DNA of 32,000 nucleotides, from contig JAZLLF010000021.1 of assembly GCA_045598005.1 (NCBI GenBank), forward strand, positions 19,952 through 51,951. The letters are read 5' to 3'. Numbering within the stretch: position 1 is the first letter of the stretch; each line of letters begins with the position of its first letter. This stretch comes from Saccharofermentans sp. (GTDB taxonomy: Bacteria; Bacillota; Clostridia; Saccharofermentanales; Saccharofermentanaceae). The notes below the pieces were generated by a model. That model ran no database searches. It saw nothing but the letters and a program-made list of their open reading frames with translations, and was not told where the DNA came from. Positions 2,752 to 27,552 of this stretch are shown piece after piece. Position numbers and translations under genes: made by a program.

Positions 2752-4107
2752 TCAGCTTCTAGTTAAGTCCTTAACCCACTTATACTTTTTGAAGTGGTAC
2801 ATAACCCACGGAATCTTTCCACATTCATCAAGGCATGTGCATGAGAATACAACAAGTACAGGCCAGTGGAATACAAATGCGCCCAAAGCAGCAAGTGGAA
2901 TTGCAATAAGCCACATTGCTACAACGAGGCTGTACATATCAAAGAGTGTGTCGCCTCCTGCTGCAAATACACCATTAATTACGATTGTATTTACGCATCT
3001 TCCAATCATGTAAAATGCCATGATTACAAGCATCCAGAGAAGGTAAAACTCCGCCTTCTCAGACAGCTTCATGTACATAAGAATGAATGGAATAAGAAGA
3101 ATCATAAGAATAGTAGAGCCAAAGCCAACAAGGAATGAGAGTGACTTAAGTCTTGTGCCGTAAACTTTACCAAGTTCAAGATTACCAACGCCAAGTTCAT
3201 TTCCTACGATAATTCCACCAGCGCTACAGATACCGTTACATACGCAGCATAAAACATCACGAACTACACCTGCTACAGCATTTGCAGCAGTGGCATCAGA
3301 GCCCATATGTCCCATGATTGCTGTGTAGGATGTAAATCCGATACTCCACAAAAGACATCCTCCAAGAAGTGGCATCATGCACTTAAGAAAATCCTTATGA
3401 ATAAGTCCTTCGTGAACAAAAATATCCTTTATAGAAGGAAGTACGTAAGTCTTACGAAGTGACAAAATAAATGCGAGAATAAGTTCAACCGTTCTCGAAA
3501 GAAGTGTAGCGATAGCGGCACCTTTTGCATACATTGGCTCTAATCCAAAAAGGCCAAAGATAAAAATTCCGTTGAAAATAATATTAAGTACAACAGCAAC
3601 AGAACTTACAACAGCACTTGTTTTTGCATGATTCGTTACCTTCATCATTGATAGGAGGCACTGCGAAAATCCAGTCATAATATATGACCAGCCAGCAATC
3701 TTAAGATACTCTGTACCGATTGCATTAAGGTTAGGATCATTTGTAAAAAGGGTCATGAGCTTATCCGGAATAAGCACACACCCAACAGCTGTAAGAATGG
3801 AAATTACAGCTATATAAATAACTCCAAGACCAAATACGTCTTTAAGTCTCTTGTTATCCTTCTTGCCAAAATACTGTGCACCAAGAATCATAAGAGTACT
3901 TGTTGCACAGGAGATAATCATGTTCTGAATAAACTGCACTTGTGTTGCAAGTGATACGGCCCCCATCTGATCCTGGGAAATTCTTCCAAGCATTGCTGAG
4001 TCAGCAACTGCTACAAGTGAGAGAAGAAGTCCTTGTAGAGCAATAGGCAAAGTAAGTTTCCAAAGCTTTTTATAAAAATCTTTATCTTCGAAGAGTTTAA
4101 TTGTCAT
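2752..4107 (-). CDS. MATE family efflux transporter
   Basis: 451 aa and about 12 hydrophobic segments. N-terminus (LWKLTLPIALQGLL..., ADSAMLGR) and overall pattern are typical of MATE/NorM-like exporters. Confidence 0.85.
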   Translation of the reverse strand: MTIKLFEDKDFYKKLWKLTLPIALQGLLLSLVAVADSAMLGRISQDQMGAVSLATQVQFIQNMIISCATSTLMILGAQYFGKKDNKRLKDVFGLGVIYIAVISILTAVGCVLIPDKLMTLFTNDPNLNAIGTEYLKIAGWSYIMTGFSQCLLSMMKVTNHAKTSAVVSSVAVVLNIIFNGIFIFGLFGLEPMYAKGAAIATLLSRTVELILAFILSLRKTYVLPSIKDIFVHEGLIHKDFLKCMMPLLGGCLLWSIGFTSYTAIMGHMGSDATAANAVAGVVRDVLCCVCNGICSAGGIIVGNELGVGNLELGKVYGTRLKSLSFLVGFGSTILMILLIPFILMYMKLSEKAEFYLLWMLVIMAFYMIGRCVNTIVINGVFAAGGDTLFDMYSLVVAMWLIAIPLAALGAFVFHWPVLVVFSCTCLDECGKIPWVMYHFKKYKWVKDLTRS

Positions 4108-4249: not shown

Positions 4250-4298
4250 CATTAATAACTGATGTATGAATTAAGTGAAAGAAGTAAAAGAACAGGTA

Positions 4299-5621
4299 AT
4301 GGATAAGAACAGACTTAAAAAACTGATACTTCCACTTTTTATGGAGCAGCTTCTTGCTGTTACTGTAGGTTTTGCGGATACACTTATGGTGTCTACAGCA
4401 GGTGAAGCCGCAGTATCAGGAGTGGCACTTGTTGATACCATAAATCTTCTTGTTATACAGGTGATGGCAGCTTTTGCCTCAGGTGGTATTGTCGTAATAA
4501 GCCAGTATATAGGTGAGAAGAACGACAGTAATGCTCGTAATGCCTGTAGGCACTTAGAGATTCTAATAAACACCTTTTCGATATTTGTGATGGGAATTTT
4601 CCTTGTTTTTGGACATCCTATCCTTAAGACGCTGTTTGGAAAAATTGAAGATGATGTTATGTCAGCGGCATATATTTATATGCTTATTACTTCTGTTTCC
4701 TTTGTTTTCTGGGGAATTTATTCTTCTGGCGCTGCGATTTTAAGATGTCAGGAAAACACCAAAACTTCCATGAAGGTAAGTGTTTTTATGAATCTTTTAA
4801 ATGTGGCCTTAAATGCCATTTTTGTGTTTGGTTTTAAGATGGGAGTAATGGGTGTTGCAATAGCGACATTAATAAGCAGGGCAGCAGCTGGAACAATAAT
4901 GAAGTATATAATTGTGTCTTCAAAGAATAATCTTCGTACCTGGGGTGATAAATCTCTTAAACTTTCATCTTCCATGATGAGAAGAATTCTTGGCATGGGC
5001 GTTCCAAGTGGAATTGAGAATGGAATGTTCCATGTAGGTAAACTCGTTCTTACAAGTGTTATTGCAACTTTGGGAACAACCGCAATTGCCGCTAATTCAA
5101 TTGCTTATCAGATTATTGAGTTTCCAAATATTCCTGGAAATACCATAGGCCTTGCCCTTGTTGTAATTGTAGGTCAGGACATTGGTGCTGGATTTAAGGA
5201 AAAAGCAGTTTCAGATACAAAATATCTAATAAAGTTTGCTTATATTTGCGACTGGATTTGTAAAATCGCGTTATTTTTCCTAGCTCCAGTAATTGTATCT
5301 GCATTTAATCTGTCTTCAGATGCTGTAAGTATTGCCGTTCTTGTTTTAAGATGTTTCTCAATCGCGTCACTTCCTATCTGGCCACTTAGTTTTACAATGC
5401 CAAGTGCATTAAGAGGAGCTGGAGATGTGCGTTATTCAATGATTGCAAGTATTATTTCCATGTGGATTGGAAGAGTTCTTGTGAGTTATATTCTCATTAC
5501 TGTATTTAATCTTGGAATTCTTGGAGTCTGGATTGGAATGTTTGTTGACTGGTACGGAAGAGGCATCAGTTATTTAATCCGTTTTAAGTCTTCCAAGTGG
5601 CTTAATAAGAAAGCAGTCTGA
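4299..5621 (+). CDS. MATE family efflux transporter
   Basis: Polytopic; N-terminus MDKNRLKKLILPLFMEQLL...ADTLMVS is MATE-like. The tracked GTG 4275 start is possible, but ATG 4299 gives the canonical N-terminus. Divergent from the other MATE gene. Confidence 0.8.
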   Translation: MDKNRLKKLILPLFMEQLLAVTVGFADTLMVSTAGEAAVSGVALVDTINLLVIQVMAAFASGGIVVISQYIGEKNDSNARNACRHLEILINTFSIFVMGIFLVFGHPILKTLFGKIEDDVMSAAYIYMLITSVSFVFWGIYSSGAAILRCQENTKTSMKVSVFMNLLNVALNAIFVFGFKMGVMGVAIATLISRAAAGTIMKYIIVSSKNNLRTWGDKSLKLSSSMMRRILGMGVPSGIENGMFHVGKLVLTSVIATLGTTAIAANSIAYQIIEFPNIPGNTIGLALVVIVGQDIGAGFKEKAVSDTKYLIKFAYICDWICKIALFFLAPVIVSAFNLSSDAVSIAVLVLRCFSIASLPIWPLSFTMPSALRGAGDVRYSMIASIISMWIGRVLVSYILITVFNLGILGVWIGMFVDWYGRGISYLIRFKSSKWLNKKAV

Positions 5622-6720: not shown

Positions 6721-6746
6721 GATGTTGGAAATAATTGAGATATAAT
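6717..6746 (+). promoter_or_regulatory. candidate sigma-A promoter of the large cluster (-35 TTTAGA, 18-nt spacer, -10 TATAAT)
   Basis: TATAAT at 6741-6746 and TTTAGA at 6717-6722. Downstream are RBS GGGAGG at 6766-6771 and ATG at 6780. Confidence 0.4.
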
Positions 6747-6779
6747 AGTAGAAGGGCACATCTTTGGGAGGTTTGTTTT

Positions 6780-8435
6780 ATGGATTACAATCAGGGAACC
6801 ATTACTAGAAGACTTGAGTCAGTTCGTGAGAATCTGGGTGAAGAATTTGGAGCTTTTTGTACTCAGTTTGAGATGAATAAGAAGCTTGATAAGCTTAATC
6901 GTTCAAGAGGCACTTCTGTATATAGTGAAAATCTTGGAAATCTTATGGATCTCCTCGATGTTTTGAAGATTGATTTTGATGACAGTCGCGAGGATTATGA
7001 TTATTACGACAAGCTTGTAAGAAATATTGAATTCCCTGAACTTACTGATCTTGAAGAGAAGATGATTTATAAACTCTACAAGATCTATGAAGAGTACCCA
7101 CTCCCTGAAGAATATATGCTCCGAATTGTAAATCGTCTTTCAAAGCCAGAGGATAACTGGCAGGACGATACATTAAGACTTCGTATTCTGAAGCAGTTCA
7201 TTAAGTATGGGAATTATCTTTACGATGCTGAGGCTGGTGGTAAGGGTTTTATTAAGAAGTACGTAAAGGCAAAGATTGGAAAGATTTCTTCCAAGAATGA
7301 GCTTGAAGATATTCTTGATAATGTTGATGATGCTATCTTTGATGTTCTTTCTGGTGGAACAAAGGATCAGAAGGAATTTTCTGGTACATATGGTCTTTTG
7401 AAAATTTGTGATGATTTGGCATCAGGTCAGTTCAGAATGGGTGGTGCTACAAAGAAGAATCTTTACCTTTTTGCTATCTGCTATGGAATGACATTCTATA
7501 TTGGTAAGGATGGCGATTCACAGATTATCGATTACAAGACTGATATCGAGAAGAATCTTTTCCGTGATTACTATGTAAATAATCTCATGAGATTTTTGAC
7601 TAATTCTTATAAGGAGAACCGTAATAGCTTCGAGAAGGAGCCAAACGGTCTTGGAATTAACTATAAGAATTTTGCTGAGATGATTTATATTTACTATCTT
7701 GCAAAGCCTGACAGTGAGATGTCTCCAGCTGAGAAAATTAAGTGCGCAACAGAGATGATTAACAGAATCAAGGATAAGGCGTATAAGAGTGGTCTTGAGA
7801 AGAAGAATCCTGCAACTTTGTATCTTAAGGATATGTTCTGTGACGATATTCTTATGAAGTCATCTGAAGATTTTGAAGAGTACATCACTACTTATTATGA
7901 CTGTGATACTTACATTGTTTATAACGGTAAGAGCGGAAACAAGGTAAGTGAAATGCAGGTTTCAACAGGTCAGAATACTGCTTTCGAGTGCTTTAAGGAG
8001 CTTATTGAAGAGATTGAGGATGAAGTTTCTGTTGAAGATATTTCATATGTGTCATGGATTGAAGATTTGAAGATTGATGCTTATGAGAAATATAAGGCGA
8101 AGTATCCTGATATTGATAAAGAGAAGTTCGAAGAGTTCCTTGCTCTCATTTTTGAGATGGACAGAACTGTCGATATTAAGGAGAAAATTGAAGAGATTAA
8201 CACTTCCAAGGAAGTATCAAGAACAGCTATTGTTGTAGCTTCCTACCATCTTTTCAATTTAAGAAGAGAAGATGACGACACAAGAAGCATTGCAACTTTT
8301 ACTGAAATTTTTGATGAGTTTGCTTCTGAAGCAAACGTTGTACTTAATAATTGTGCTTACCAGCAACTTAACTGTAAGAATATTTTTGATGTGTTAATTG
8401 TATTCTCAATTTATGTAAGTCAGTACGTAGATTAA
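6780..8435 (+). CDS. hypothetical acidic protein (551 aa), first gene of the cluster
   Basis: Long ORF. ATG 6780 lies 8 nt after GGGAGG; the tracked TTG 6735 start would overlap the -10 box. D/E/K-rich, no TM segment, no motif I can name. Confidence 0.6.
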   Translation: MDYNQGTITRRLESVRENLGEEFGAFCTQFEMNKKLDKLNRSRGTSVYSENLGNLMDLLDVLKIDFDDSREDYDYYDKLVRNIEFPELTDLEEKMIYKLYKIYEEYPLPEEYMLRIVNRLSKPEDNWQDDTLRLRILKQFIKYGNYLYDAEAGGKGFIKKYVKAKIGKISSKNELEDILDNVDDAIFDVLSGGTKDQKEFSGTYGLLKICDDLASGQFRMGGATKKNLYLFAICYGMTFYIGKDGDSQIIDYKTDIEKNLFRDYYVNNLMRFLTNSYKENRNSFEKEPNGLGINYKNFAEMIYIYYLAKPDSEMSPAEKIKCATEMINRIKDKAYKSGLEKKNPATLYLKDMFCDDILMKSSEDFEEYITTYYDCDTYIVYNGKSGNKVSEMQVSTGQNTAFECFKELIEEIEDEVSVEDISYVSWIEDLKIDAYEKYKAKYPDIDKEKFEEFLALIFEMDRTVDIKEKIEEINTSKEVSRTAIVVASYHLFNLRREDDDTRSIATFTEIFDEFASEANVVLNNCAYQQLNCKNIFDVLIVFSIYVSQYVD

Positions 8436-8458
8436 TTTAAAGGAATTGTTGTTAAGAA

Positions 8459-9145
8459 GTGGTACACGAATTTACATTTATTGGAAAGCATCACAGAGAG
8501 AATAATATGGGTGCTCAGGATTATACCTGTTTTGAAGAAGGTCCAAGATATCTGGTAACAGTTCTTGCTGACGGTGTTTCAACGTGCCCGAATTCTTACG
8601 AGGGAGCAAAGGTCTGCTGCGAAGCTTTGAAAGCAATTTTCTTCGCGAAAGCAGAATATTTCTTTGAATTCGACGAAGAGAAAATAAAGGATCTTGCAAT
8701 GTCACATGTCCTTTATGAACTTCGAAAGTATGTTGAATTAAATGGTGGAAAACTTGAAGATTATTCAAGTACTCTTGCAGGAGTTCTTTACGACAAGAAG
8801 GAAGAGCGCTATATAACTTTAAGTGTTGGCGACAGTTTAATTATCGGCTCAGGCTTTGGTAAATGTGAGACTTTGTCCATGCCTTATGATTCAACTTCTG
8901 GCTGTCCTGTTACTACAACAAATAATGTTTTGGAAGTTACAGAAGTTAAGATTTCAGACTCAGCCAATTTTGAGTCAATTACTATTTTTACTGATGGTGC
9001 ATGGAGAGAACTCTATAATCGTAACAGCATGAAGAAGAATATTGAGATTTCTCTTATTAATGGCGATTTGAAAAATATCGAAGATTCATTAATAGAATGC
9101 GAGCCTTTTGATGACAGCAGTTTTATAACTGCCATCTTGGTATAA
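8459..9145 (+). CDS. PP2C-family Ser/Thr protein phosphatase
   Basis: PP2C motif order: GKHHRENNMGAQDY (R..N.D), VLADGVS (DG metal site), SVGDSLI (GDS), IFTDGAW, FDDSSFITAILV (terminal DD). GTG 8459 is the first possible start after an in-frame TAA; ATG 8507 is an alternative. Confidence 0.75.
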   Translation: MVHEFTFIGKHHRENNMGAQDYTCFEEGPRYLVTVLADGVSTCPNSYEGAKVCCEALKAIFFAKAEYFFEFDEEKIKDLAMSHVLYELRKYVELNGGKLEDYSSTLAGVLYDKKEERYITLSVGDSLIIGSGFGKCETLSMPYDSTSGCPVTTTNNVLEVTEVKISDSANFESITIFTDGAWRELYNRNSMKKNIEISLINGDLKNIEDSLIECEPFDDSSFITAILV

Positions 9146-9158
9146 GGTCGGAGGATTT

Positions 9159-12100
9159 ATGAAGGAGCGCACATACATTAAAAATGAGATTCTTCTTTGT
9201 AGTCTTATCGATGGTGAGAAATCACGTAAGAAGTTCCGAATAGTTAAGAAAATCGGCGATGGTGCTATGGCAGTTGCCTATGAGGCATATAGCGATGGTA
9301 CCAGTGGTTTTGGTGTGCTTCATGAGTTTTATCCAAAGGACAGTATTATTTTAACAAGAAGATCTGATAACCAGCTTGTTGTTACAGATGGTTTTGATGA
9401 AGCTATTAATAGACTTGAAAGAGATAAAGAGAAGTATGTTTCATCTTATCTGAAGCTTGCTGAAGTTATACGTAATAATCCTGATAATAATCTGTCAGTT
9501 CATCTTCCTGTTTTTGAGATTTACTATGGTTGTGATGAAGATAAAAACATAATTGGAACTACATATATCTGGACTCCTGAACAAAAACTCGAGACTTATG
9601 AGAAAGTATGTCAGGATATTCATAGACACCCAAGTTCTTCACCAGAATTTAAACTTGTATCTGCTCTTAAGGCGATTGAGTCACTTGCTGAAGCCACACT
9701 CGATCTTCATATGGCAGGATTTATCCATCGTGACATTAAGCCTTCTAATTTTGGTTTCACATTGTCTCACGATACTATCAAGACAGACAGTTTTAAACTT
9801 TTTGATATCGACAGTATGTGTCGATCAATTCAAAGACGTGTTGATTATGTTGTTGTTTCTGAAGGTTTTACTGAGCCGGAAATGAGAGCATCAATACCTC
9901 AGAGACCAAGTGTTCAGACAGATATTTATTCAATTGGAGCGACACTTTTTTATTCAATAATTATTACACCTGAAACTAAGGCAACAGACTATAGATACAG
10001 TGATGATTACTATGACAGAATTGATGAACTTGTGGCATCTTCAAGTCTTATTTCATCAAGTGAGTCTAATTCACATCCGAAGTTAAGACATATTCTTGCG
10101 AAGATTTTGAAGAAATCTCTTGCAAAAAGAAGTGCCAGATATGAGAAGTGTGAAGATTTAATCGAGGATATTAAGACAGCCATTTACTATGCTCTTCCAG
10201 GTGAGCTTTCATCAAGAAACAAGAGAGGGGTAAAGGTTATTTACGATGACGTTAAGTCTGAATTTGATAAATTCTCAATCAAGAATTCATCGATGGTTCT
10301 TATAAATCATCTTTATGAGGTTCCATTTTACAGAAGCCTTGATAAGTCAATGGAAGATATTAATATTCTTGTGGTTGGCCTTGGAAATTATGGTCAGAAG
10401 TTTATTGATATCTGCCTTCAGGCAGGTCAGATGATCGGAAAGAGAATTCGAATTACAGCGGTTTCTTCTGATGCTCTCGACAGCAGAATTTATCTTGAAG
10501 AACGTCCTGAACTTGAGAATTTCTTCAATATAGATGGCAGAAATCCAGCGCCTGATTCTTATGGTGATATTAACTTTGTAACTTATAATTTCGATCCTGA
10601 TAATTACGATGCGAATCCAAAAGCAGTAAGAAAGAATACTGAGAGTTTTGTCACTGGTTTTAAGGATACGTTTGTTTATGCTTTTATTGCTCTTGGAAAC
10701 GATGAGATTAATAGTGCTGCTTCAAGAGGAATAAACAAGGCATACGATAAACTTGGAAAAGAAATCACAATTTCTTATGTAAACGAGAAGAAGGAAGATA
10801 TAGGTCTTATTAACGACAGGAAGAATATCTTTGCTGTTAATATTAATGCGCCACTTAAGAGCTTCAGATATAACGATGAGATTGAGAGAATGGGCTTTAA
10901 TATGCATCTTCTCTGGGAAAAGAATCTCAATGTGGATTTCAGAGAAGTATATAAGGCATATAACGATTTATATAACCATACTTCATGCGTATGTGGTGTT
11001 CTGGCACTTAAATATAAGTTGTTCAGCATTGGAATCAATCTCGATGAATTAAGTTTTGAAGAAGCTTCCGAGAAGTTCCTTTCTGAAGATGTTTCAGATG
11101 AACTGATTTATCTTGAGCACAGAAGATGGGTAACTGAAAAGATTTGTGCCGGATGGTCAAAGCGTCCTGTGGAGATGGCTTTCAACGGAGCTACAAGAGA
11201 CAAGAAACTTAAAAACCATATCTGTATTGTAAAGAGCGACAGTAACCAGAACCTTAAGCGTAATTTTACTGATAAGGGGCTTCGTACCTGGGATGAGGCT
11301 ACGGATGAAGAACTTAATACTCTTGATGAGCTCGATAGAATGTCCGTTGAGCTTCATAGAGGATATGTAAAAAAAGCTAAGGCAATTGATGTGTCAGGAC
11401 TTTTGAGCGGACATTTGTATACAAAAATGTATTCTCTCATTGAGTCTGACAAAGATGCTCTTGCAGCATTTCAGGAGTGGTTTTCCTGCGTAAAGGAGAT
11501 CTGCATTGATCTTCCTGAGAATGCTGCGCGTAAAATTAAGTTATACAGAAGCCTCAAAGATGCTTTTGTTATGGCAGCGAATAATTCTTATGTAGAGTCT
11601 CTCGTTAATGAGTTTAATAAGGCAGTTGAGCCAATTCTTCTCAGCCGTGAGTATCGCGATTTCAAGCAGGATGATACGGTAATGATTATGAATACTCCGT
11701 TCATTCTTACTTTTACAGAGAAGACAACGCTTGCCATTCCATATGAGTTTAATGATAAATCTCAGGTGTTCGATAATATATCTGCACCATGTATGGTTAA
11801 TCCAAACAGAATTGTATATTTTGTTCTGATTGAGAAGAATGAAGATATTCCAAGTTTCCGCGAGACACTTAACGGAACTATCAGCTTTATGAAGAAGAAA
11901 AACATAACATCTTCCATAGATCTGTTTATCGCTTATGACAAAACAAACGGATTTAATTTAAATCGTGCTTTTGAGAAGGCAGTTATTGAAGATGGTTATG
12001 GTCTTATTAAGAGCGTAAAGAGATTCCCTTATTCTGATATTGATTCTGTTCTTACTGAAATCAGAAAGTATATTGATAAGCGTAAATCTGGCAGAAACCA

Positions 12101-13259
12101 GCTGGCAATTGAGAAGAATAATACCAAGCTTTCTGGTTTGTTCAGGGATACAGGCATTTATAGTTCATATGCTTCTTACTATTTTGATTCTTTCAATATG
12201 GTTTTTGAAGATTTAAACGGTGCAGACTTTTTGAAATATATTTCAAAGCGTCCACATTTTACTATTTCTGAAGCTTTGTCCTTCAGACGTGCATCAAATA
12301 TTAAGAGCAACCATCCGGAATTTTATAACGATTATAAAGATCTCTGGAAGATGTATAGTAAACACCGCTCCTCCTGGATTGAGCTCAACAGTATTCTTGC
12401 TTCTTATTCTGATGTTAATGATGTAATTGTAACTTTTAATCTTGATGATTATTCAGCTTCAAAGGCAGATAATTTTGCATACATTGTTCCTCAGTACTGT
12501 TCACGAAATCTTGTAAGACTTCTTGTAAAACTTAAAAGAGCCGGGGTAATTTCAAAGGAAAGCAGCGTAACCGGATATACCAGTGATTCCTGCCATGTAA
12601 ATATCGTTGGCGACATTAAGCTTAAGGCAAAATTCGATGTAATTTTTGCGAACTGCTACTGCTTTGCAATAGATAACATGCTTAACGTAAAGAAGATTTC
12701 CGATAGTAAGGTGTCAGTGATTTACGATGATCTTTCTGTAAGAAACCTCGATATTTCTTCCTGCGAAAGCAAGATCATGCTGATTCTTAAGTACCTTGAG
12801 GAGAAGAGTTATATTAACTGTCTTAATGCTGAAGATAATAAGAAAGTAAGTTTTACTTATTCCACATCAGTCATTAAGAGATTCCTTAAAGATTCTGATG
12901 CCATGCTTCAGATCTATACATACCATAGCGTTAAGGAATTAACGAGTGTGGACGATATCTTAAGCAGTTACGAACTTAAATCAAGAAGTGATGATCCTTT
13001 AAGAGAAATCGATCTTGTAATAACAAAAGGTTTCAGAATGGTATTTGTTGAGTGTAAATCCGAAGGTGTATCGGAGGAAGAGGTACTTAACAAACTGAAT
13101 ACTCTTGTTCAAAGCGTTGGTACAAACGCAACCGCAGTTCTTATTACTGATGGTAAGGTTAAGAAGGGACTAAAGAGCGATACGGTTATTATTTCGAAGA
13201 AGGACGAGATTAATAGTATCAGTAGTACACTTATGAAGATTATTAATAGTGAATACTGA
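9159..13259 (+). CDS. multidomain Ser/Thr protein kinase fused to a Rossmann-like/RyR-like module and a Card1/Can2-like CARF + PD-(D/E)xK nuclease-like module
   Basis: Hanks-type kinase motifs: G-loop IGDGAMAVAY, catalytic loop HRDIKPSN (H190-D192, nt 9726-9734), DID for DFG, TEPE for APE, DIYSIGATLF. Downstream motifs: GLGNYG and EHRRW..GW. C-terminus has EID(1285)-x12-E(1298)CK(1300). GGAGGA lies just upstream of the ATG. Confidence 0.85.
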   Translation: MKERTYIKNEILLCSLIDGEKSRKKFRIVKKIGDGAMAVAYEAYSDGTSGFGVLHEFYPKDSIILTRRSDNQLVVTDGFDEAINRLERDKEKYVSSYLKLAEVIRNNPDNNLSVHLPVFEIYYGCDEDKNIIGTTYIWTPEQKLETYEKVCQDIHRHPSSSPEFKLVSALKAIESLAEATLDLHMAGFIHRDIKPSNFGFTLSHDTIKTDSFKLFDIDSMCRSIQRRVDYVVVSEGFTEPEMRASIPQRPSVQTDIYSIGATLFYSIIITPETKATDYRYSDDYYDRIDELVASSSLISSSESNSHPKLRHILAKILKKSLAKRSARYEKCEDLIEDIKTAIYYALPGELSSRNKRGVKVIYDDVKSEFDKFSIKNSSMVLINHLYEVPFYRSLDKSMEDINILVVGLGNYGQKFIDICLQAGQMIGKRIRITAVSSDALDSRIYLEERPELENFFNIDGRNPAPDSYGDINFVTYNFDPDNYDANPKAVRKNTESFVTGFKDTFVYAFIALGNDEINSAASRGINKAYDKLGKEITISYVNEKKEDIGLINDRKNIFAVNINAPLKSFRYNDEIERMGFNMHLLWEKNLNVDFREVYKAYNDLYNHTSCVCGVLALKYKLFSIGINLDELSFEEASEKFLSEDVSDELIYLEHRRWVTEKICAGWSKRPVEMAFNGATRDKKLKNHICIVKSDSNQNLKRNFTDKGLRTWDEATDEELNTLDELDRMSVELHRGYVKKAKAIDVSGLLSGHLYTKMYSLIESDKDALAAFQEWFSCVKEICIDLPENAARKIKLYRSLKDAFVMAANNSYVESLVNEFNKAVEPILLSREYRDFKQDDTVMIMNTPFILTFTEKTTLAIPYEFNDKSQVFDNISAPCMVNPNRIVYFVLIEKNEDIPSFRETLNGTISFMKKKNITSSIDLFIAYDKTNGFNLNRAFEKAVIEDGYGLIKSVKRFPYSDIDSVLTEIRKYIDKRKSGRNQLAIEKNNTKLSGLFRDTGIYSSYASYYFDSFNMVFEDLNGADFLKYISKRPHFTISEALSFRRASNIKSNHPEFYNDYKDLWKMYSKHRSSWIELNSILASYSDVNDVIVTFNLDDYSASKADNFAYIVPQYCSRNLVRLLVKLKRAGVISKESSVTGYTSDSCHVNIVGDIKLKAKFDVIFANCYCFAIDNMLNVKKISDSKVSVIYDDLSVRNLDISSCESKIMLILKYLEEKSYINCLNAEDNKKVSFTYSTSVIKRFLKDSDAMLQIYTYHSVKELTSVDDILSSYELKSRSDDPLREIDLVITKGFRMVFVECKSEGVSEEEVLNKLNTLVQSVGTNATAVLITDGKVKKGLKSDTVIISKKDEINSISSTLMKIINSEY
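10350..11240 (+). other. domain: Rossmann-like (VVGLGNYG) + RyR-like (LEHRRWVTEKICAGW...KNHICIV) module inside the kinase gene
   Basis: By eye it aligns block by block with residues ~312-616 of the next-but-one gene: INILVVGLGNYGQ / ISVIINGLDNYGS; FIALGNDEIN / FTSLGSDTAN; YLEHRRW / RIEHDRW. Confidence 0.6.
11725..13259 (+). other. domain: DUF1887/Card1-Can2-like region (CARF-like Rossmann, wHTH-like segments, PD-(D/E)xK core)
   Basis: The C-terminal stretch QIYTYHSVKE...REIDLVITKGFRMVFVECKSEG...LNKLNTLVQSVGTNATAVLIT matches my recollection of the DUF1887 nuclease consensus (E.D-x(n)-ECK, then a conserved G and a hydrophobic strand). Confidence 0.5.
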
Positions 13260-13290
13260 TAATTAGTCTCCCCCTTAATGGAAGTAAACA

Positions 13291-13626
13291 ATGCAGGCGG
13301 ATAATATACACATGGAGAAGAATATGAATAGTAATATACTTAATAACGGTTATGAACCATTACCAGAAGATATTTCGGATGTAGTTCTTCCAAAAGAACT
13401 GGAAGAGTTAACAGAGATTATTGCAAAAAATGTTCACGAAGTATGGTCACAGGGCAGAATTGATGATGGCTGGGTTTACGGCGAAGAACGTGATACAGAA
13501 AAGAAGACAACGCCATGTCTCGTACCATATGAAGAATTATCAGAAGAAGAAAAAGATTTTGACAGAAGAACAGCGATGAACACACTGAAGTTCATTATTA
13601 AAGCAGGGTTTAAAATTACCAAGTAA
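13291..13626 (+). CDS. stand-alone RyR (ryanodine-receptor repeat, PF02026-like) domain protein
   Basis: LTEIIAKNVHEVWSQGRIDDGWVYGEERDTEKKTTPCLVPYEELSEEEKDFDRRTAMNTLKFIIKAGFKI matches the RyR-domain pattern (HE.W...GW.YG...K..P.LVPYeELse.eK..DR). Alternative start is ATG 13324, preceded by GGAG. Confidence 0.75.
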   Translation: MQADNIHMEKNMNSNILNNGYEPLPEDISDVVLPKELEELTEIIAKNVHEVWSQGRIDDGWVYGEERDTEKKTTPCLVPYEELSEEEKDFDRRTAMNTLKFIIKAGFKITK

Positions 13627-13640
13627 CGAGGTTTTATTAT

Positions 13641-15491
13641 ATGTGGATTATTAGTTTTATTATTTCGTTGTTGATTATTGTTGCCGGCATATCATTTGCT
13701 GCACTTTATCGTAAAAACGATAAATGTAAATCACACTTTAATCTTACAAGTATTCTGATTTGCACTGTATTTATTTCCTCAGCATGCTTGTTTTTTCCTG
13801 TATACAGATTAAGTATCGAAGGTTCAAATATTCCTGCAATCAAGGCAGCACTTATGTCCCTTCATAATTCAATTAGACTTTTTGTCGTAGATGGTGATTT
13901 CCAGTTTTTATTTGATTTTAAAGACCAGATTACTCCATCAATCCTTCCATTTTATGAGATTCTTGTCATTATCGAGTTTATTGTAGCTCCAATCCTGACT
14001 TTCAGCTTTGTGCTTTCATTTTTTAAGGATCTTCAGGCTAATATGGATCTCTTTTTCAGTGGAAAGAGAGATGCTTATGTGTTCTCAGAACTTAATGAGC
14101 GTTCAATTCTTCTTGCAGAGGATATCTACAGAACAAAGAAGAATCCACTTATCGTTTTTACTGATGTTTTCGAGACTGAAGGTGAAGAATATTACGAGCT
14201 TTCAAAGCGCGTTAACATGATTGATGGTCTTTGTTTCCGCAAGGATATTACAAAGTTTAAGTTTAAAAAGTACAAGAATGATTCAGAGCATGAACTCATG
14301 TTCTTCCTTTGTTCTGACAACACTACTGATAACAAAGAGAGTATTGAGCAGTTCATTAAGCTTGATGAAAAGTACCGTGATTATGTAAATTGTTCACTTT
14401 ACTATTTCTCTTCAACTTCAGATAGTAATCTTGTTAACAGAACACTTGATGAGGCTTATGGAGAAGCACGTAAACTTAAGGTTTACAGAGTAAATGAATC
14501 AGTTCAGCTCGTTTATAACTACCTTTATGAATCTGGTATCAATCTTTATAAGGAAGCTTATGAAGAGAACGGTATGAAGAAGATTAGTGTAATTATTAAC
14601 GGACTTGATAATTACGGTTCTGAACTTCTCAAAGGACTTATCTGGTTCCTTCGAATGAAGGGTTACGATTATGAGATAAACTGCTTTGATTCGAATTTCG
14701 ATGCAGAAGATAAAATGAGACGTGAAATGCCTGAAGTTTTCCTTTGTAATGAGGGCAAGAATGAGCATGATCCGGACGTTCGTTACAATTTGAAGATTTA
14801 TCCTGATACTAATTTTGATTCAGTTCATTATGTAGACAGAATTAAGAGCATCTCAAATCCAACATTTGTATTTACAAGTCTTGGTTCAGATACTGCAAAC
14901 ATCGAACTTTCTACATATATTAAGAGAATAATCGACAGAGAATTCATTACACACGATAAAGAACCTGATACCTGCAGATTTGTTACAATTGTAAAGAATT
15001 CAACTGAGAAGGAACTTCTCAAACTTGTTGTTTACAAAGATGAGGAGAAGGATGGCAAGAAGATACGAAAAGAAATCAGATGCCTTCCTGAGAACTTCGA
15101 ACTTATTGGTGATTACAGCACACTTTATTCTTATAACTTTGTCACAATGAGTAAAATTGCAGCAGCAGGTCTTGAAAGACATCACATCTGGGGTGGTAAA
15201 GATCACCAGTATTACGGTAACGAATACAACTATAAATCATCCATCTCTTCTGCAATTCATATCAGACTTCGAAAGGAACTTAACATTCCTGGTGCAAACG
15301 TTAATCCAAAGGAGAGAACTCCTGAAGAGAAAGATACAATTTGCAGAATCGAGCATGACAGATGGAGTGCCTATACAAGAACAAATGGTTTTATCTATAA
15401 CAAGAAAAAATATACCAGCCTGAAGCTCCATAACTGTCTTATTCCTTTTGATGAGCTTGATGACAAGAATAAGGACAACGATAATGTTTGA
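13641..15491 (+). CDS. polytopic membrane protein with cytoplasmic Rossmann-like + RyR-like module
   Basis: Three to four N-terminal TM helices (WIISFIISLLIIVAGISFAAL, LTSILICTVFISSACLFFPVY, ILVIIEFIVAPILTFSFVLSFF). C-terminal half holds GLDNYG and IEHDRW(571-575)...NGFIY...LHNCLIPFDELDDKNK, paralogous to the kinase middle region. Confidence 0.7.
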   Translation: MWIISFIISLLIIVAGISFAALYRKNDKCKSHFNLTSILICTVFISSACLFFPVYRLSIEGSNIPAIKAALMSLHNSIRLFVVDGDFQFLFDFKDQITPSILPFYEILVIIEFIVAPILTFSFVLSFFKDLQANMDLFFSGKRDAYVFSELNERSILLAEDIYRTKKNPLIVFTDVFETEGEEYYELSKRVNMIDGLCFRKDITKFKFKKYKNDSEHELMFFLCSDNTTDNKESIEQFIKLDEKYRDYVNCSLYYFSSTSDSNLVNRTLDEAYGEARKLKVYRVNESVQLVYNYLYESGINLYKEAYEENGMKKISVIINGLDNYGSELLKGLIWFLRMKGYDYEINCFDSNFDAEDKMRREMPEVFLCNEGKNEHDPDVRYNLKIYPDTNFDSVHYVDRIKSISNPTFVFTSLGSDTANIELSTYIKRIIDREFITHDKEPDTCRFVTIVKNSTEKELLKLVVYKDEEKDGKKIRKEIRCLPENFELIGDYSTLYSYNFVTMSKIAAAGLERHHIWGGKDHQYYGNEYNYKSSISSAIHIRLRKELNIPGANVNPKERTPEEKDTICRIEHDRWSAYTRTNGFIYNKKKYTSLKLHNCLIPFDELDDKNKDNDNV

Positions 15492-15635: not shown

Positions 15636-17147
15636 ATGTCTTATCGTAAAAACTTGATTTGCTCTATTGCATTGATGATTATCTGCTCTGTTCTTGTATC
15701 ATGTGCAGGCACTCTTAATACCAAACTCGACAGAGATGGTAATCCTATTGATGAGAGTTCTGAAAGTATAACTTCAGAATCTGAAACATCTGAGACTACT
15801 TCTAGTACTACTACTTCAGAGACTACAACCAGCACTTCTGAATCTACTACTGAAACCAGTGAAACGTCAGAAACTTCTGAACCTGAAGATCCTACCCCAA
15901 CACCTATAGATCCAAATAATCTGCCTGAATACTATAATCTTGTGGAACTTGGATATACTCCACCAGTAGAAAATCAAAGTGCATATGGTTCATGTCAGAG
16001 TGAAACATTTACAACAATTATGGAAAGCCGACTTCTTGTTCAGGGAATACAGTCTGATATTTCAGAGTGGGCATTTTTCCATTGTCTGAATCACTATGGA
16101 TTCCATTATAGCTATGTTGGTGAGTCATCTCTGATAGCAGATGGTTATGCAGCTATTATTCCTGAATCTGCTGCTCCATATCCTGATGATTTTGTTTATG
16201 GTGATCGTACTGAAGGATATGTTCTTCCTGATCAGTATGTAAATCACCAGGATTATTCTGTAACAGATATTTATTACTTATCTGATGAATACATGAGTAA
16301 TGATGAGATTATTGAAGTAGCAAAGACATGGCTTTATAGAAACTATGCACTTGGTGCAAGTTTTGATTTCAGCGAAGAAGCATTTGATTTATATATGTCT
16401 TCTGATCAGCAGTCTTACTACTGCACAGATTCTCACAGAACGATTAATCATATGATGACTATCGTTGGATATGATGACAATTATCCAAAGGAGAATTTTA
16501 AGAGCACTCCATCACGCGATGGTGCTTTTCTTGTTCAGAATAGCTGGGGTACTGATTATTGGAATGGAACTGGCTTCTTCTGGATTTCTTATGATGACGC
16601 AATGATGTCAGACTTTGATCTGTTTACAGTAGAGGTTGTTTCAGGTGACAGTTACGACTATGTGGATTATTACGATGTAAATGCTCACTGGTCAGACTAT
16701 ACAGCTTCACTTAGTTCTTCATCTTCAACATGTGGAATTAAATTTCATGCGGATAATGCGCTTGATCTTGATGCAGTTGGAATTTATACAACAGTTCCAA
16801 ATGAGAGTTTTCAAGTTTATCTTGATGTATCTGGAAATATGGAACAGACAGTTCTTGTTGCTGAAGGAACAAGGCAGGATCGTGGTTTTTATCGTATTGA
16901 ACTGAATGATGTGTACCATATTGATGCAGGGACAGATTATTCGTTTGTAATTGTATACACGGGTCAGGTTGGTGAATATCTTATCCCTATGGACTGGATT
17001 TTTACTGCCAGTGCTGCATCTGATTTAACAATTGGTAGAACTTCGGGTGTAACTTTCGTATATATGAATGGTTCCTGGAGAGATATTACTTCTCTTGGTG
17101 ATCAGTACGGTAATATCTGTTTCAAAGTTTATGGACACAGGTCTTAA
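15636..17147 (+). CDS. secreted lipoprotein, papain-like (C1 family) cysteine peptidase with Ser/Thr/Glu-rich linker
   Basis: Lipobox LVSC (Cys23) after a basic/hydrophobic N-terminus. C1 catalytic blocks: QSAYGSCQSETF (Cys), NHMMTIVGYDD (His), VQNSWGTDYWNGTGFFWISYD (Asn-Ser-Trp-Gly). Confidence 0.75.
   Translation: MSYRKNLICSIALMIICSVLVSCAGTLNTKLDRDGNPIDESSESITSESETSETTSSTTTSETTTSTSESTTETSETSETSEPEDPTPTPIDPNNLPEYYNLVELGYTPPVENQSAYGSCQSETFTTIMESRLLVQGIQSDISEWAFFHCLNHYGFHYSYVGESSLIADGYAAIIPESAAPYPDDFVYGDRTEGYVLPDQYVNHQDYSVTDIYYLSDEYMSNDEIIEVAKTWLYRNYALGASFDFSEEAFDLYMSSDQQSYYCTDSHRTINHMMTIVGYDDNYPKENFKSTPSRDGAFLVQNSWGTDYWNGTGFFWISYDDAMMSDFDLFTVEVVSGDSYDYVDYYDVNAHWSDYTASLSSSSSTCGIKFHADNALDLDAVGIYTTVPNESFQVYLDVSGNMEQTVLVAEGTRQDRGFYRIELNDVYHIDAGTDYSFVIVYTGQVGEYLIPMDWIFTASAASDLTIGRTSGVTFVYMNGSWRDITSLGDQYGNICFKVYGHRS
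15753..15905 (+). repeat. coding low-complexity S/T/E(P) linker (imperfect GAAAC(N)TCTGA-type DNA repeats)
   Basis: Translates as ESSESITSESETSETTSSTTTSETTTSTSESTTETSETSETSEPEDPTPTP, lying between the lipobox and the peptidase domain. Confidence 0.6.
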
Positions 17148-17174
17148 GTGATATTAATTTTGGGTGAGATTTTT

Positions 17175-19319
17175 ATGAGAAAGTTTAAGGATATTTGTTT
17201 AAAAACTGTAGCGAGTCTGATTTCTGCTTTTATAGGATTGTCCGTTTATTCTGGAGTGTCAGGTAATTTTGTTGCTGCAGATCCAGTTGACACTATTTCA
17301 CGTGCTATTAATGTTGTTTATGATGATTCTGACAGCATGTATTTTTGTGGTGGTACTGAAGGATATGATGTAGATACATGGTGCCAGGCCAAGTATTCAA
17401 TGGAAGTATTTGCTGCCATGCTTGGCGCAAATGATACCATGAATATTTATTACATGAGTGATTATGACGAATCTGAATCTGCACCTGCAAGAATCAGTAT
17501 TTCAGGTAGTGATGATGTATCTGAAAATATTTCAAAGATTCATAATGAGACAACTACACCTGGTGGAACATCCTTGAATTCAATCCGTAAGGCTTGCTCT
17601 GATCTTGAATCAGCATCTGCTGATGAGAAGTGGCTTGTTGTTCTTACTGACGGTGTAATTGATGATAATCCTGTTTCTACCACTTTTGTAAATGAGTATT
17701 TCCATGGAAAATCAGATGATATAACTGTTTTGTTCCTTGCTATTGGTGAGTATTCAAGAACAATTATGACAGAACCTAATTATGGTATTTATAGTTTCCT
17801 TGCTAATTCAAACGATGAGATTTTCGATTATGTAATGCTTATGTGTAACTGGATCTATAGTGCCAATACACTTGATGTAAATGTTTCTACAGGTGAGTTT
17901 TCCACAGATCTTCCTTTGAAGCAGGTAATTGTATTTGCTCAGGGTGAAGATGTAACAGTTAACGGTATCGGTGCTTTGGAGCCTGACAGAGATGTTCAGA
18001 TTAATTATAGTGAATGTGATGCTGTAACACGTGATAATGAACCTGATACTTCACTTCACGGTACTGTTGCAACATTTATAAGTTCATTTGATCCAGGCAC
18101 ATATACTATTGATGCTACAAATGCTGAAACACTTCAGGTTTACTTTGTTCCTGATGTGGATATTATGGTTTCATTTACTGATACAAATGGAAATTCTGTT
18201 ATTAATGCTTCTGAACTTGAAGCAGGTTACTATAATTATGAGATTTCTCTTGTAAGAGGTGGGACTAACGAAGTAATTACTAATTCGACACTTCTTGGAG
18301 AACTTGCTTATTCTGTTAATGTGACAATCGGAGATTATGCAATCAGATATAATGATCCATCAGGCTCTATTCAGCTTGCAGGTGGAGACACTGAACTTGA
18401 GTTCCGTGTTAAGTTTTTGGGCTACAGCCAGGTGTCTTTGACTCATTCATACGTTGTAAATGTTCCTGAGGTTGTTTCTGGTAACAGCACTATTACTTTC
18501 GAAGTTGTTGATAATCCTGTTTTTGATGTGTCTTCAGAGGGCATTACTACAGGCGAAGGAATTAAGATTCATGCACTTATCAATGGACGTGAATTTACTC
18601 AGAGTGAATGGGATTTCCTGGATGTTCCAGTTATTACTTTTGGTAATGATGTAAATAACTTAAAACTTACTCCAACTATGCTTACTAAGAGTGACGAATT
18701 AGGAATTTTTGTTCTTGTTCCAACACTTGATGGTGAGCCTTCTTCATCATCTTATAAGGAATTAACTTATTCTATTTCAATTTCACAAAGTGCAGGTGAA
18801 CTTCAGACCTGGGAAGGCTCAATGGAAGGAAAGATTGAGTTTAATGATTTAAGAAGCTTTGGCGATCGTAATACCAGAGCAATCATCACTACTGTAGTTA
18901 TTGTTCTTTTGTTAGCATTTGCCATGCTTTATATGCCTTTTATTAAGCATTACATGCCAGGCATGAGTAAGTATCCTAGAATTAATATTTCCAACTATGC
19001 TACAGGTTCAGATTCTATTTCAAAGGGCGAAGTAACTATTGATATTTTGAGTACTATCCTTCCTGTTGTTCCTCAGAAGGGTAATATTTCCTTTATTCCA
19101 AGTTCAGTACCAATTCCATCTTTCAGAGTTAAAGCTGTTGGTAATGGCAGAATGGAAATCGAGAACGTAAAGGATTTTGCAAAGTATAATATTAGTGTCG
19201 GATCAAAGAATCTCGCTGAAGAAGTTAGAGAAAATGAGGGCGTAAAGGTAACATTAGGAGCTTCAACTACAATTGATACTGTATATAGGAAGACAGATTA
19301 TACTTGTGTTTTGAAGTAA
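17175..19319 (+). CDS. vWA-domain membrane protein, paralogue 1 (signal peptide - vWA/MIDAS - beta-rich region - TM - cytoplasmic tail)
   Basis: N-terminal signal MRKFKDICLKTVASLISAFIGLSVYSGV. MIDAS D50-D-S52-D-S54 (nt 17322-17336), GGTSLNS and VVLTDG. TM AIITTVVIVLLLAFAMLYMPFI (~18879-18945), then a ~125-aa tail. ATG 17175 follows GGGTGAG. Confidence 0.8.
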   Translation: MRKFKDICLKTVASLISAFIGLSVYSGVSGNFVAADPVDTISRAINVVYDDSDSMYFCGGTEGYDVDTWCQAKYSMEVFAAMLGANDTMNIYYMSDYDESESAPARISISGSDDVSENISKIHNETTTPGGTSLNSIRKACSDLESASADEKWLVVLTDGVIDDNPVSTTFVNEYFHGKSDDITVLFLAIGEYSRTIMTEPNYGIYSFLANSNDEIFDYVMLMCNWIYSANTLDVNVSTGEFSTDLPLKQVIVFAQGEDVTVNGIGALEPDRDVQINYSECDAVTRDNEPDTSLHGTVATFISSFDPGTYTIDATNAETLQVYFVPDVDIMVSFTDTNGNSVINASELEAGYYNYEISLVRGGTNEVITNSTLLGELAYSVNVTIGDYAIRYNDPSGSIQLAGGDTELEFRVKFLGYSQVSLTHSYVVNVPEVVSGNSTITFEVVDNPVFDVSSEGITTGEGIKIHALINGREFTQSEWDFLDVPVITFGNDVNNLKLTPTMLTKSDELGIFVLVPTLDGEPSSSSYKELTYSISISQSAGELQTWEGSMEGKIEFNDLRSFGDRNTRAIITTVVIVLLLAFAMLYMPFIKHYMPGMSKYPRINISNYATGSDSISKGEVTIDILSTILPVVPQKGNISFIPSSVPIPSFRVKAVGNGRMEIENVKDFAKYNISVGSKNLAEEVRENEGVKVTLGASTTIDTVYRKTDYTCVLK

Positions 19320-19324
19320 ATATC

Positions 19325-21541: not shown

Positions 21542-21547
21542 GTTATA

Positions 21548-21580
21548 GCACCAGATTCAGTAATGGGTCTGGTGTTTTGC
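21548..21580 (+). terminator. rho-independent terminator between vWA paralogues 2 and 3
   Basis: CACCAGA (21549-21555), a 12-nt loop, TCTGGTG (21568-21574), then TTTT (21575-21578). Confidence 0.6.
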
Positions 21581-21687
21581 TTCCCCCTGAAATTGTTAGA
21601 TTTCTTTTTGCGCTAATATGTAGATACAAAAACAGGCATTTGCATGATTTGTTTAATTATTATTTACATTTAAAGTGGTTTTTCAAA

Positions 21688-21715
21688 GAAAACAGGAGCC
21701 TGAATTTTGTATAAT
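21688..21715 (+). promoter_or_regulatory. candidate promoter for vWA paralogue 3 / tubulin-like operon (TG-TATAAT)
   Basis: TGTATAAT at 21708-21715, about 65 nt upstream of ATG 21779. The -35 is weak (GAAAACA region). A similar module (AAAACAGG...TTTGTTTAAT) sits at 21628-21657. Confidence 0.3.
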
Positions 21716-21778
21716 TATTTACTGAGGATATATGTGTAATTATATTTTGTATCTTCATCAGGGAGCAGAGGGAACTTT

Positions 21779-24016: not shown

Positions 24017-24056
24017 ATAAAAACAATTTAATTCATATAAACTAAGGAGGCAGTTT

Positions 24057-27515: not shown

Positions 27516-27552
27516 TAACTAACTTTAAAAAATAATAATCGGAGGTGAAGGC

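Follow-up and report, generated by a model that had tools for sequence, protein, structure and literature searches.

A divergent Card1/Can2/VC1899-type module joined to a kinase in a likely conflict cassette of Saccharofermentans sp.

The stretch of DNA analyzed here, 32,000 nucleotides in length and referred to as the window, belongs to Saccharofermentans sp. (assembly GCA_045598005.1, contig JAZLLF010000021.1, positions 19,952–51,951 of the forward strand). In the middle of a five-gene cassette, it encodes a protein of 1366 residues (the big protein) that begins with a kinase domain and ends in a nuclease domain. An earlier note on this DNA had read the C-terminal third of the protein as a Card1/Can2-type sensor and nuclease. 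Indeed, this third is a homolog of Card1, Can2, and VC1899 (DUF1887), on which PF09002, PADLOC, hhalign, and Foldseek agree: residues 856–1366 form a true, divergent module of this type, consisting of a CARF-like Rossmannoid domain, a two-unit linker, and a PD-(D/E)xK nuclease. The start given for it in that note, 11725, is one base out of frame; codon 856 begins at base 11724, and the frame from 11725 holds 30 stops. The protein is organized as follows:

9159..13259, + strand: big protein, intact open reading frame, 1366 aa
9159..10208, + strand: kinase domain, residues 1–350 (Pfam Pkinase, PADLOC models, catalytic residues)
10341..10868, + strand: Rossmann-like domain with GxGxxG, residues ~395–570 (motif conservation, model, weak profile matches)
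10869..11723, + strand: helical region with an RyR-like motif (E653-H654-R-R-W657 ... H687 ... D723)
11724..12218, + strand: CARF-like Rossmannoid domain, residues 856–1020 (model and Foldseek; no sequence support)
12219..12899, + strand: linker with two helix-plus-β-hairpin (winged-helix-like) units, residues 1021–1247 (model; hhalign for the second unit)
12900..13259, + strand: Card1/Can2-type PD-(D/E)xK nuclease domain, residues 1248–1366 (Pfam PF09002, PADLOC, hhalign)

The family is large, with 345 proteins returned by a homology search. The best 120 of the 345 are nearly all full length and 36–51% identical to the window protein, and most of them combine PF00069 with PF09002. Conservation was assessed in three sets: 120 full-length homologs, 149 family sequences, and 125 representatives from clustering at 50% identity. 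When a profile of the C-terminal 511 residues was used in an exhaustive search, 1393 cluster representatives were obtained at E ≤ 0.001, 380 of them at E ≤ 1e-30.

The nuclease domain is the best-supported part of the module. Pfam Card1_endonuc (PF09002) matches residues 1248–1333 of the window copy with an E-value of 2.5e-5 and 24.3 bits (gathering score, 26.4), and it was found in 13 of 13 C-terminal fragments of family members (best E, 1.1e-11) and in 25 of 34 full-length members. The PADLOC model CARF4--CARF_PDDEXK also matches, with a best E-value of 8.4e-10, via the nuclease part only (profile positions ~245–330 of 364). As a comparator, SthCan2 was reassembled from the synthetic-gene text in the supplement of PMC7969007, and 50 Can2 relatives were aligned. 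The family profile matched this Can2 profile in hhalign with 95% probability and an E-value of ~2e-8 over the second helix-plus-hairpin unit and the whole nuclease, equating Can2 residues E243, E276, D278, E291, and K293 with family positions 1251, 1283, 1285, 1298, and 1300. Searches against the PDB yielded less: the only Can2 match of the C-terminal profile covers 28 residues of 8bao (E 0.0047), phmmer with the single sequence of residues 856–1366 found no match, and kinase matches swamped everything else when the profile of the full-length alignment was used. Two fragments of 8bao, used as seeds for a homology search, produced no candidates. Weak matches of residues ~1063–1128 to the p12 subunit of caspase-3 (E ~0.02) were judged to be chance, as the model and hhalign place this stretch in the Can2-like helical linker.

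The motif positions lie in the window copy as follows:

12909–12911, + strand: Q1251
13005–13007, + strand: E1283
13011–13013, + strand: D1285
13050–13052, + strand: E1298
13056–13058, + strand: K1300

The strings on which the earlier note had based its assignment, E1283-I-D1285, LVITKGFRMVFV, E1298-C-K1300, and QIYTYHSVKE (1251–1260), are present at the numbered residues. Its proposed triad of D1285, E1298, and K1300 is correct but incomplete, the full motif being E..ExD..ExK. Lack of conservation of the triad had been named beforehand as what would speak against the assignment; of the 120 homologs, 113 retain D1285, 111 retain E1298, and 110 retain K1300, and the observation therefore stands. 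Profile and predicted-structure checks against PF09002 and Card1/Can2 both gave matches. Each motif position is kept in 92–94% of the 120 homologs and in 84–95% of the 125 representatives, and H1256, D1266, and T1289 are invariant in the 120-sequence alignment. In TbrCan2, which has the motif E-ExD-...-K, alanine at Glu304, Asp343, or Lys369 abolishes DNase activity (PMC10783487).

Four of the five motif positions are intact in the window copy (Q1251-E1283-D1285-E1298-K1300). The exception is position 1251, which is Glu in 113 of the 120 homologs and Gln here. In addition, the family residues Q1307 and Y1310 are replaced by Glu and Leu, and an insert of ~14 residues ending in QRxRG is missing. 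The D/E/K positions have been lost in ~10 of the 120 homologs, among them the nearest relatives of the window protein. Nuclease activity of the window copy is doubtful because of Q1251, the missing Q1307 and Y1310, and the broken sites of these relatives.

The AlphaFold2 model of residues 800–1366, built with 67 homologs, has a mean predicted local distance difference test (pLDDT) value of 85.8 and a predicted template modeling score of 0.77. It begins with the Rossmann-type strands 856–861, 884–891, 919–927, 950–958, and 981–986, which are followed by a hairpin (1006–1020), a helical stretch, two helix-plus-hairpin units (helices 1112–1127 and 1200–1215), and the nuclease core, with the order α-β-β-β-α-β (1248–1345). 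The first three strands coincide with the Rossmann-like β-α-β stretch of the earlier note, and the further strings quoted there, LNKLNTLVQSVGTNATAVLIT, LVRLLVKLKRAGVISKES, LILKYLEEKSYINCL, and TTLAIPYEF (856–864), likewise occur at the numbered residues. The two stretches that it had called winged helix-turn-helix-like each form a long helix and then a β-hairpin in the model, but no helix-turn-helix family matches them; the best result was one member of 34 with an E-value of 0.064. Of the two units, the second (~1200–1235) alone aligns with its Can2 equivalent (residues 205–235) in hhalign.

A Foldseek search of this model against the PDB gave the following main matches, each spanning ~500 aligned columns:

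VC1899 (1xmx): E 9.9e-16, target-normalized TM-score 0.61, 500 columns
Can2 (8bao, 7bdv, 8q3y–8q44): E 1e-12 to 1e-9, target-normalized TM-score up to 0.69
Card1 (6xl1, 6wxw): E 3.4e-12 and 1.5e-11, target-normalized TM-score about 0.5
Cdn1 (9u49; 8z4i weaker): E 1.7e-12, target-normalized TM-score 0.55

Structures that share the CARF domain only match weakly, such as Cam1 (8t64_B, probability 0.97, E 0.013) and also Csm6. Because TM-scores of 0.60–0.69 on targets of 341–380 residues are beyond the reach of the ~200-residue nuclease half alone, we infer that the modeled Rossmann domain must superpose in the same frame as in the Card1/Can2-type targets.

The CARF-type sensor proposed earlier thus holds in its Rossmann fold and domain order, but it has no sequence similarity to the CARF domain of Card1 and no signature for binding cyclic tetra-adenylate (cA4). 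The CARF family of Card1, PF23400, gave no match at E ≤ 5 in the 13 family members tested, and all Can2 relatives found carry it. Likewise, hhalign of residues 850–1035 against the Can2 CARF domain gave a P-value of 0.064 and a probability of 0.9%. A greedy alignment anchored on the nuclease points to another register: the loop that is best conserved in the family, FAvE985-K-N987-x-T-x-L-S992, falls on the invariant LN93-V-T-G-G-T-K99 of Can2, and Y1007-x-F-D-S lies opposite I-Y118-V-D-S, with nil confidence at both places. N93, T95, G97, T98, K99, and Y118 are invariant in the Can2 alignment, and S19 is nearly so; the contacts with cA4 in Can2 and Can1 are made by S19, T42, K99, and Y118 (PMC7969007). 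In neither of the two registers do these contact residues (K99 within NxTGGTK) have an identical conserved counterpart in the family. Gating of the nuclease by cyclic oligoadenylates (cOA) is unlikely because PF23400 is missing, the hhalign P-value is 0.064, and the cA4-binding residues of Can2 have no conserved counterpart. Instead, the CARF-like domain has conserved residues of its own, namely P861, F871, N873, P882, E985, N987, and S992, located just after β-strands; P861, F871, N873, E985, and N987 are kept at 90% or more among close homologs. A pocket with a chemistry other than that of Card1/Can2 is therefore plausible in this domain. What supports the CARF half is its modeled fold and its place in the order of domains, not its sequence.

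Upstream of this module, the model of residues 340–860 has a pLDDT of 88.5, and Foldseek against the PDB found nothing at E < 0.001 for it. The top match was Csm6 (E 0.026), which is not taken as evidence of a second CARF/HEPN unit, and R577..H583 and H733-R734 were dropped as HEPN motifs for want of profile or fold support. In the Rossmann-like domain, G407-x-G409-N-Y-G412 is conserved; 19 of 34 members show weak Sacchrp_dh_NADP matches, and there was one TrkA_N match. In the following helical region, H654, W657, H687, and D723 are invariant in 149 of 149 family sequences and kept in at least 97% of the 125 representatives, being more conserved than the nuclease motif. The segment around them (~640–735) matches a set of 22 small RyR proteins in hhalign with a P-value of 0.012, and Pfam RyR gives no match on it at E ≤ 1. 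There is also a transitive link through the 616-aa protein encoded downstream, whose residues 308–601 are homologous to residues 394–691 of the big protein (hhalign E 2e-6); the part of this neighbor that is aligned to the RyR-like segment matches Pfam RyR with an E-value of 2.5e-5. The RyR-like nature of the internal segment is a lead with some support, and the segment is not a proven member of the RyR family. According to a 2026 preprint (PMC13232231), RyR-domain proteins of phages use H75, W78, H100, and D117 to bind or hydrolyze 2′/3′-cyclic ADP-ribose (cADPR). The invariant H-W-H-D motif of the family points to an adenine-nucleotide or ADP-ribose-type ligand.

At the N-terminus, Pfam Pkinase matches residues 128–326 (E 4.6e-11), and the PADLOC/NCBIfam kinase models PD-T4-6, MkoA, and MAD6 match with E-values of 2e-15, 7e-13, and 2.4e-9, respectively. 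H190-R-D192, N197, and D216 are present in the window copy and at least 95% conserved. Position 55, which aligns with the VAIK lysine of PpkA in a weak match (E 0.36), is Lys in 113 of the 120 homologs, Arg in four, and His solely in the window copy (bases 9321–9323).

The big gene lies between the other four genes of the cassette, all on the same strand:

6735..8435, + strand: 'unk570', 566 aa, first cassette gene (41% identity to its positional counterpart in locus L001)
8459..9145, + strand: PP2C-type Ser/Thr phosphatase, 228 aa (Pfam PP2C_2, E 5.7e-17)
13291..13626, + strand: small RyR-domain protein, 111 aa (Pfam RyR, E 6.6e-33, 113 bits vs. a cut-off of 27.4)
13641..15491, + strand: 616-aa protein with N-terminal hydrophobic segments, a Rossmann-like part, and an RyR-like C-terminus

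These five genes (6735–15491) are 13–31 bp apart, with 13 bp between the PP2C and kinase genes, and are followed by a gap of 144 bp with a promoter-like site before 15636. The unk570 protein has no Pfam, NCBIfam, PADLOC, or PDB relative. Besides the kinase and nuclease domains, PADLOC gave a weak PP2C match (PDC-M21C, E 0.0023). In the 616-aa protein, Pfam RyR covers residues 565–614 below the gathering score, and the N-terminus appears to be transmembrane. The middle module of the big protein thus also exists as a separate, seemingly membrane-anchored protein. In agreement with the earlier note, no cyclase or CD-NTase was found in the window, nor were Cas10, other cas genes, a CRISPR array, or an Rfam element.

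The order of unknown protein, PP2C, kinase/nuclease, and RyR protein is kept in four distinct, fully annotated loci (L001, L002, L004, and L005), in which no cas genes, CRISPR array, or cyclase were found within 10 kb of the gene. When 35 related loci were scanned with hidden Markov models built from the cassette genes, the ~570-aa gene was directly upstream in nearly all loci with enough flank, the PP2C gene was directly upstream of the kinase gene in most, and the small RyR gene adjoined the big gene in about two-thirds. The copy number and fusions of RyR vary among loci: two small RyR genes stand in tandem in L013 (7375–8081), and a 1151-aa protein with an RyR-like part (E 1e-30) is encoded upstream of the cassette in L008 (764–4801). 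In L001 and L005, the cassette is located among Mob_Pre, resolvase, TraG, and several TIR genes. TIR_2 genes stand beside the cassette in L005 (14474–22095), L001 (14555–18013), L024 (14234–19182), and L010 (854–3890); one of the four in L005, in a Mob_Pre and TraG context, is fused to methyltransferase domains and another to an FtsK domain. A TIR partnership was rejected as a core feature, as TIR genes are near only 4 of the 35 loci.

A scan of 185,579 species representatives, one genome per species, found 29 loci in species-level genomes of three groups: Clostridia, Synergistales/Synergistaceae, and Sphaerochaetaceae. The hosts are rumen and gut metagenome-assembled genomes assigned to Lachnospiraceae, Oscillospiraceae, Ruminococcus, Oribacterium, Saccharofermentans, Synergistales, and Sphaerochaetaceae. 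About 14 of 147 representatives, with 1006–1060 aa, are kinase-less variants, whose start Met lies a few residues before the Rossmann-like domain (profile position ~362–378). Among 19 shorter proteins (974–1121 aa), the full E-ExD-ExK motif is found in 18 and H..H..D in all 19. Their cassette is a different one: a TPR protein of ~891 aa whose gene overlaps the start of the core gene, the core, a 95-aa RyR protein, and a 133-aa protein. Neither the PP2C nor the ~570-aa gene is present in these kinase-less cassettes, three of which, encoding cores of 1054–1070 aa, are located as follows:

L035, 5333–11931: kinase-less locus
L036, 1123–7721: kinase-less locus
L029, 5764–12320: kinase-less locus

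Because the kinase-less proteins start at a domain boundary and lie in a different cassette, the gene arrangements indicate that the autonomous unit is the Rossmann/RyR-like/CARF-like/nuclease core with the small RyR protein, and that the kinase, PP2C, and ~570-aa protein are one exchangeable input set.

Taken as a whole, the explanation that we favor with moderate confidence is that a Card1/Can2/VC1899-type module serves as a gated nuclease effector in a likely conflict cassette. The cassette is probably anti-phage, and an abortive-infection output, as proposed in the earlier note, is a reasonable inference from the context. In this explanation, the cassette would be a sporadically distributed anti-phage or conflict system, and its effector would be the nuclease, probably dimeric like Can2, which an input would release from its inactive state in the resting cell. 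Where the kinase is present, this input would be phosphorylation, reversed by the PP2C phosphatase. The core may also bind an adenine-containing nucleotide of the NAD/ADP-ribose type rather than a cyclic oligoadenylate; the site would be the invariant RyR-like pocket, the CARF-like pocket, or both. This ligand would be buffered or broken down by the small RyR protein.

Several observations weigh against this explanation. The CARF-like domain shows no significant CARF sequence similarity, and with two registers possible, no residues can be assigned to its pocket. The link of the internal segment to RyR is indirect, combining the hhalign P-value of 0.012 with the transitive 616-aa link and no Pfam or PDB match. 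The nuclease site has been lost independently in ~8% of members, so that its activity is not indispensable, and the window copy itself has Q1251 together with H55. No signal-making enzyme is conserved in the cassette, the TIR genes being confined to the neighborhood of 4 of the 35 loci. The family was absent from the plasmid and phage collections searched with tblastn. Finally, PADLOC recognizes no defense component in the cassette beyond the kinase and nuclease domains and the weak PP2C match.

The residue losses in the window copy are shared, in part, by its closest relatives. Its subclade comprises the window protein, P0002 (from L006), P0003 (from L004), P0039, and P0053, and position 55 is Arg or His in all five. 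The nuclease motif is broken in four of the five members; P0002 has D1285A and K1300N, and P0003 has E1298K and K1300L. This correlated erosion suggests that catalysis is reduced or lost in the subclade, and since both the kinase (H55) and nuclease (Q1251) centers are eroding, the window copy may act mainly as a sensor or scaffold. Of all loci examined, just three (the window, L004, and L006) have the 616-aa gene or an orthologue of it after the big gene; the paralogues of the subclade, with their Rossmann-RyR architecture and N-terminal hydrophobic segments, have 593–651 aa. It is possible, though we would not expect it, that the big protein of this subclade is both a pseudokinase and a pseudonuclease and that its output has moved to the membrane-anchored 616-aa paralogue. 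The change of K55 to His or Arg in all five members, the broken motifs, the lack of Q1307, Y1310, and the QRxRG insert beside Q1251, and the restriction of the 616-aa gene to three loci agree with this. Yet the window copy retains E1283, D1285, E1298, and K1300 as well as HRD, N197, and D216, a Gln is still able to ligate metal, and searches with the 616-aa protein brought up no effector domain. Moreover, some active kinases, the WNK kinases, lack the canonical Lys.

Control by phosphorylation only is a tentative and rather less probable alternative. Here, the CARF-like domain would be a ligand-free dimerization platform, autophosphorylation of the kinase and the PP2C phosphatase would switch the nuclease, and the ~570-aa protein would be a phage sensor or kinase regulator. 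Such control would fit a CARF-like domain in which the cA4-binding signature and CARF sequence similarity are both absent, a kinase, PP2C, and ~570-aa protein that come and go together, and a cassette with no conserved signal synthase. However, the CARF-like domain and the nuclease persist in the kinase-less variants and must then be controllable without phosphorylation. In addition, the conserved loop residues of the CARF-like domain follow β-strands, where Rossmannoid sensors bind ligands, and the RyR-like H/W/H/D residues are invariant.

A more far-reaching version of the favored explanation, which we consider unlikely, is that the cassette represents a new nucleotide-signaling immune module. 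The RyR-like, and perhaps the CARF-like, pocket would sense an ADP-ribose-type or other adenine-nucleotide signal and switch on the Can2-type nuclease; the small RyR protein would be the off-switch, as a sponge or glycosidase, and the kinase with PP2C, or the TPR protein, would provide an exchangeable second input. Ring nucleases act on cOA as the small RyR protein would act on its signal.

That the big protein is instead a housekeeping signaling kinase of Clostridia, with a nuclease-like tail for DNA repair or regulation, is improbable. The cassette does follow MatE, polysaccharide deacetylase, and peptide deformylase genes in the window, and the signs of a role in defense are indirect. Nevertheless, 29 loci among 185,579 species representatives in three distant groups are a patchy spread, and the neighborhoods are variable, some with mobile-element and TIR genes. 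Together with this patchiness, the exchangeable inputs and repeated active-site loss are hallmarks of accessory conflict systems. Least credible of all, at a very low probability, is a classical type III CRISPR ancillary nuclease activated by cOA from a Cas10 elsewhere in the genome: it has in its favor the fold likeness to cA4-bound Can2, Card1, and Cdn1 and the CARF4--CARF_PDDEXK matches, and against it the lack of PF23400 and of conserved counterparts of the cA4-contacting Can2 residues, the lack of cas genes and CRISPR arrays in the window and the four annotated loci, and the failure of cA4 to activate VC1899, the best match in structure.

VC1899 of Vibrio cholerae (1xmx), the founding DUF1887 protein and an orphan CARF-nuclease, has the same domain order and ExD..ExK core as the window module and, like it, no CRISPR link. 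It has an acidic and hydrophobic pocket without the cA4-binding residues and is neither CRISPR-linked nor activated by cA4 (PMC7969007). Whereas VC1899 stands alone and has 380 residues, the window module has ~510 residues with an extra helix-plus-hairpin unit, is fused to kinase, Rossmann-like, and RyR-like domains, and sits in a PP2C/RyR cassette; only in the nuclease half are the two similar in sequence. Can2, Card1, and Cdn1 (PF23400 plus PF09002; 'CARF4' in PADLOC) have in common with it the nuclease and the preceding helix-plus-hairpin unit, with whole-chain fold E-values of ~1e-12. Unlike them, the window module has no PF23400, NxTGGTK, S19, T42, or Y118 and no CRISPR-Cas nearby, is embedded in a 1366-aa multidomain kinase, and has Gln where the first catalytic Glu would be. 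The big protein shares its Hanks-type Ser/Thr kinase domain with PD-T4-6, MkoA (a PADLOC model), Mad6 of MADS, and PglW of BREX. However, the scores for PD-T4-6, MkoA, and MAD6 are far under the family cut-offs (36 bits vs. 460 for MAD6), and the aligned region never extends beyond the kinase domain.

In RNase L and Ire1, a kinase-type domain is covalently joined to a dimerization-dependent nuclease, which in RNase L is oligoadenylate-dependent. The likeness is one of logic only, with a KEN domain in place of PD-(D/E)xK and sensor domains that are not homologous. TerY-P pairs a Ser/Thr kinase with an adjacent PP2C phosphatase. This pair is shared with the cassette, but the TerY-P triad of vWA, PP2C, and kinase includes a vWA protein, and no vWA was found in the upstream partner of the cassette with Pfam, NCBIfam, or the PDB. 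The KKP module likewise has a kinase paired with a PP2C phosphatase (PMC11341870). With the phage RyR protein RyDEP (PF02026), the small 111-aa RyR protein and the internal motif have the H-x-x-W and D positions in common; H100 of RyDEP tentatively corresponds to H687 of the internal motif, and the small RyR protein has Thr there. RyDEP is a phage counter-defense protein, whereas the RyR domains of the window are encoded by a host cassette, and the internal one falls short of the Pfam thresholds. No description of the kinase-DUF1887 fusion and its cassette was found in the literature searched, the CARF census (Makarova et al. 2020) lying outside that search.

The surroundings of the cassette in the window are as follows. 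Upstream, divergent MatE efflux genes (2752–4107, − strand; 4275–5621, + strand) are followed by polysaccharide deacetylase and peptide deformylase genes; this context is that of an ordinary chromosome, and neither an integrase nor a tRNA marks the border. Downstream, a papain-like C1 peptidase with a lectin-like domain is encoded on the same strand (15636–17147). Three tandem paralogues of 723, 745, and 745 aa come next (17148–19319, 19304–21541, and 21779–24016), with mutual phmmer E-values of 1e-115 to 1e-260 and no significant Pfam match; the best Pfam match of the three is a weak VWA_2 in the second (E 0.041), and the first resembles a TIR-containing open reading frame beside the cassette in L010 (8e-20). 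They precede a 1152-aa Tubulin_2 protein (24057–27515; PF13809, E 4.5e-60), a 652-aa protein with hydrophobic segments (27553–29511), and a frame that stays open for at least 830 codons (~29483–32000) and runs off the window end. The C1 peptidase, Tubulin_2, 652-aa, and end-of-window genes were not found near the cassette in other loci, and the downstream genes (15636–32000), including the three paralogues, may be a separate large system.

To date, Card1/Can2-type nucleases have been known as stand-alone, cOA-activated type III CRISPR effectors. What is new here is such a module outside CRISPR and inside a far larger protein, which adds three putative domains for sensing or regulation, in a cassette that is widespread in gut and rumen bacteria. 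The two cassette types constitute a natural experiment, in which one effector is wired either to a kinase, PP2C, and an unknown protein or to a TPR protein. Given the correlated loss of kinase and nuclease residues, annotation by domain name would overstate what the window copy can do. If the nucleotide-signaling module were true, bacteria would have a counterpart of RNase L and Ire1 in terms of logic, and prokaryotic RyR domains would for the first time have a role on the side of the host rather than the phage. Host-encoded RyR domains, whose phage relatives bind or cleave cADPR according to the 2026 preprint, are now linked to a nuclease effector, and the family may give a function to the orphan VC1899-like branch.

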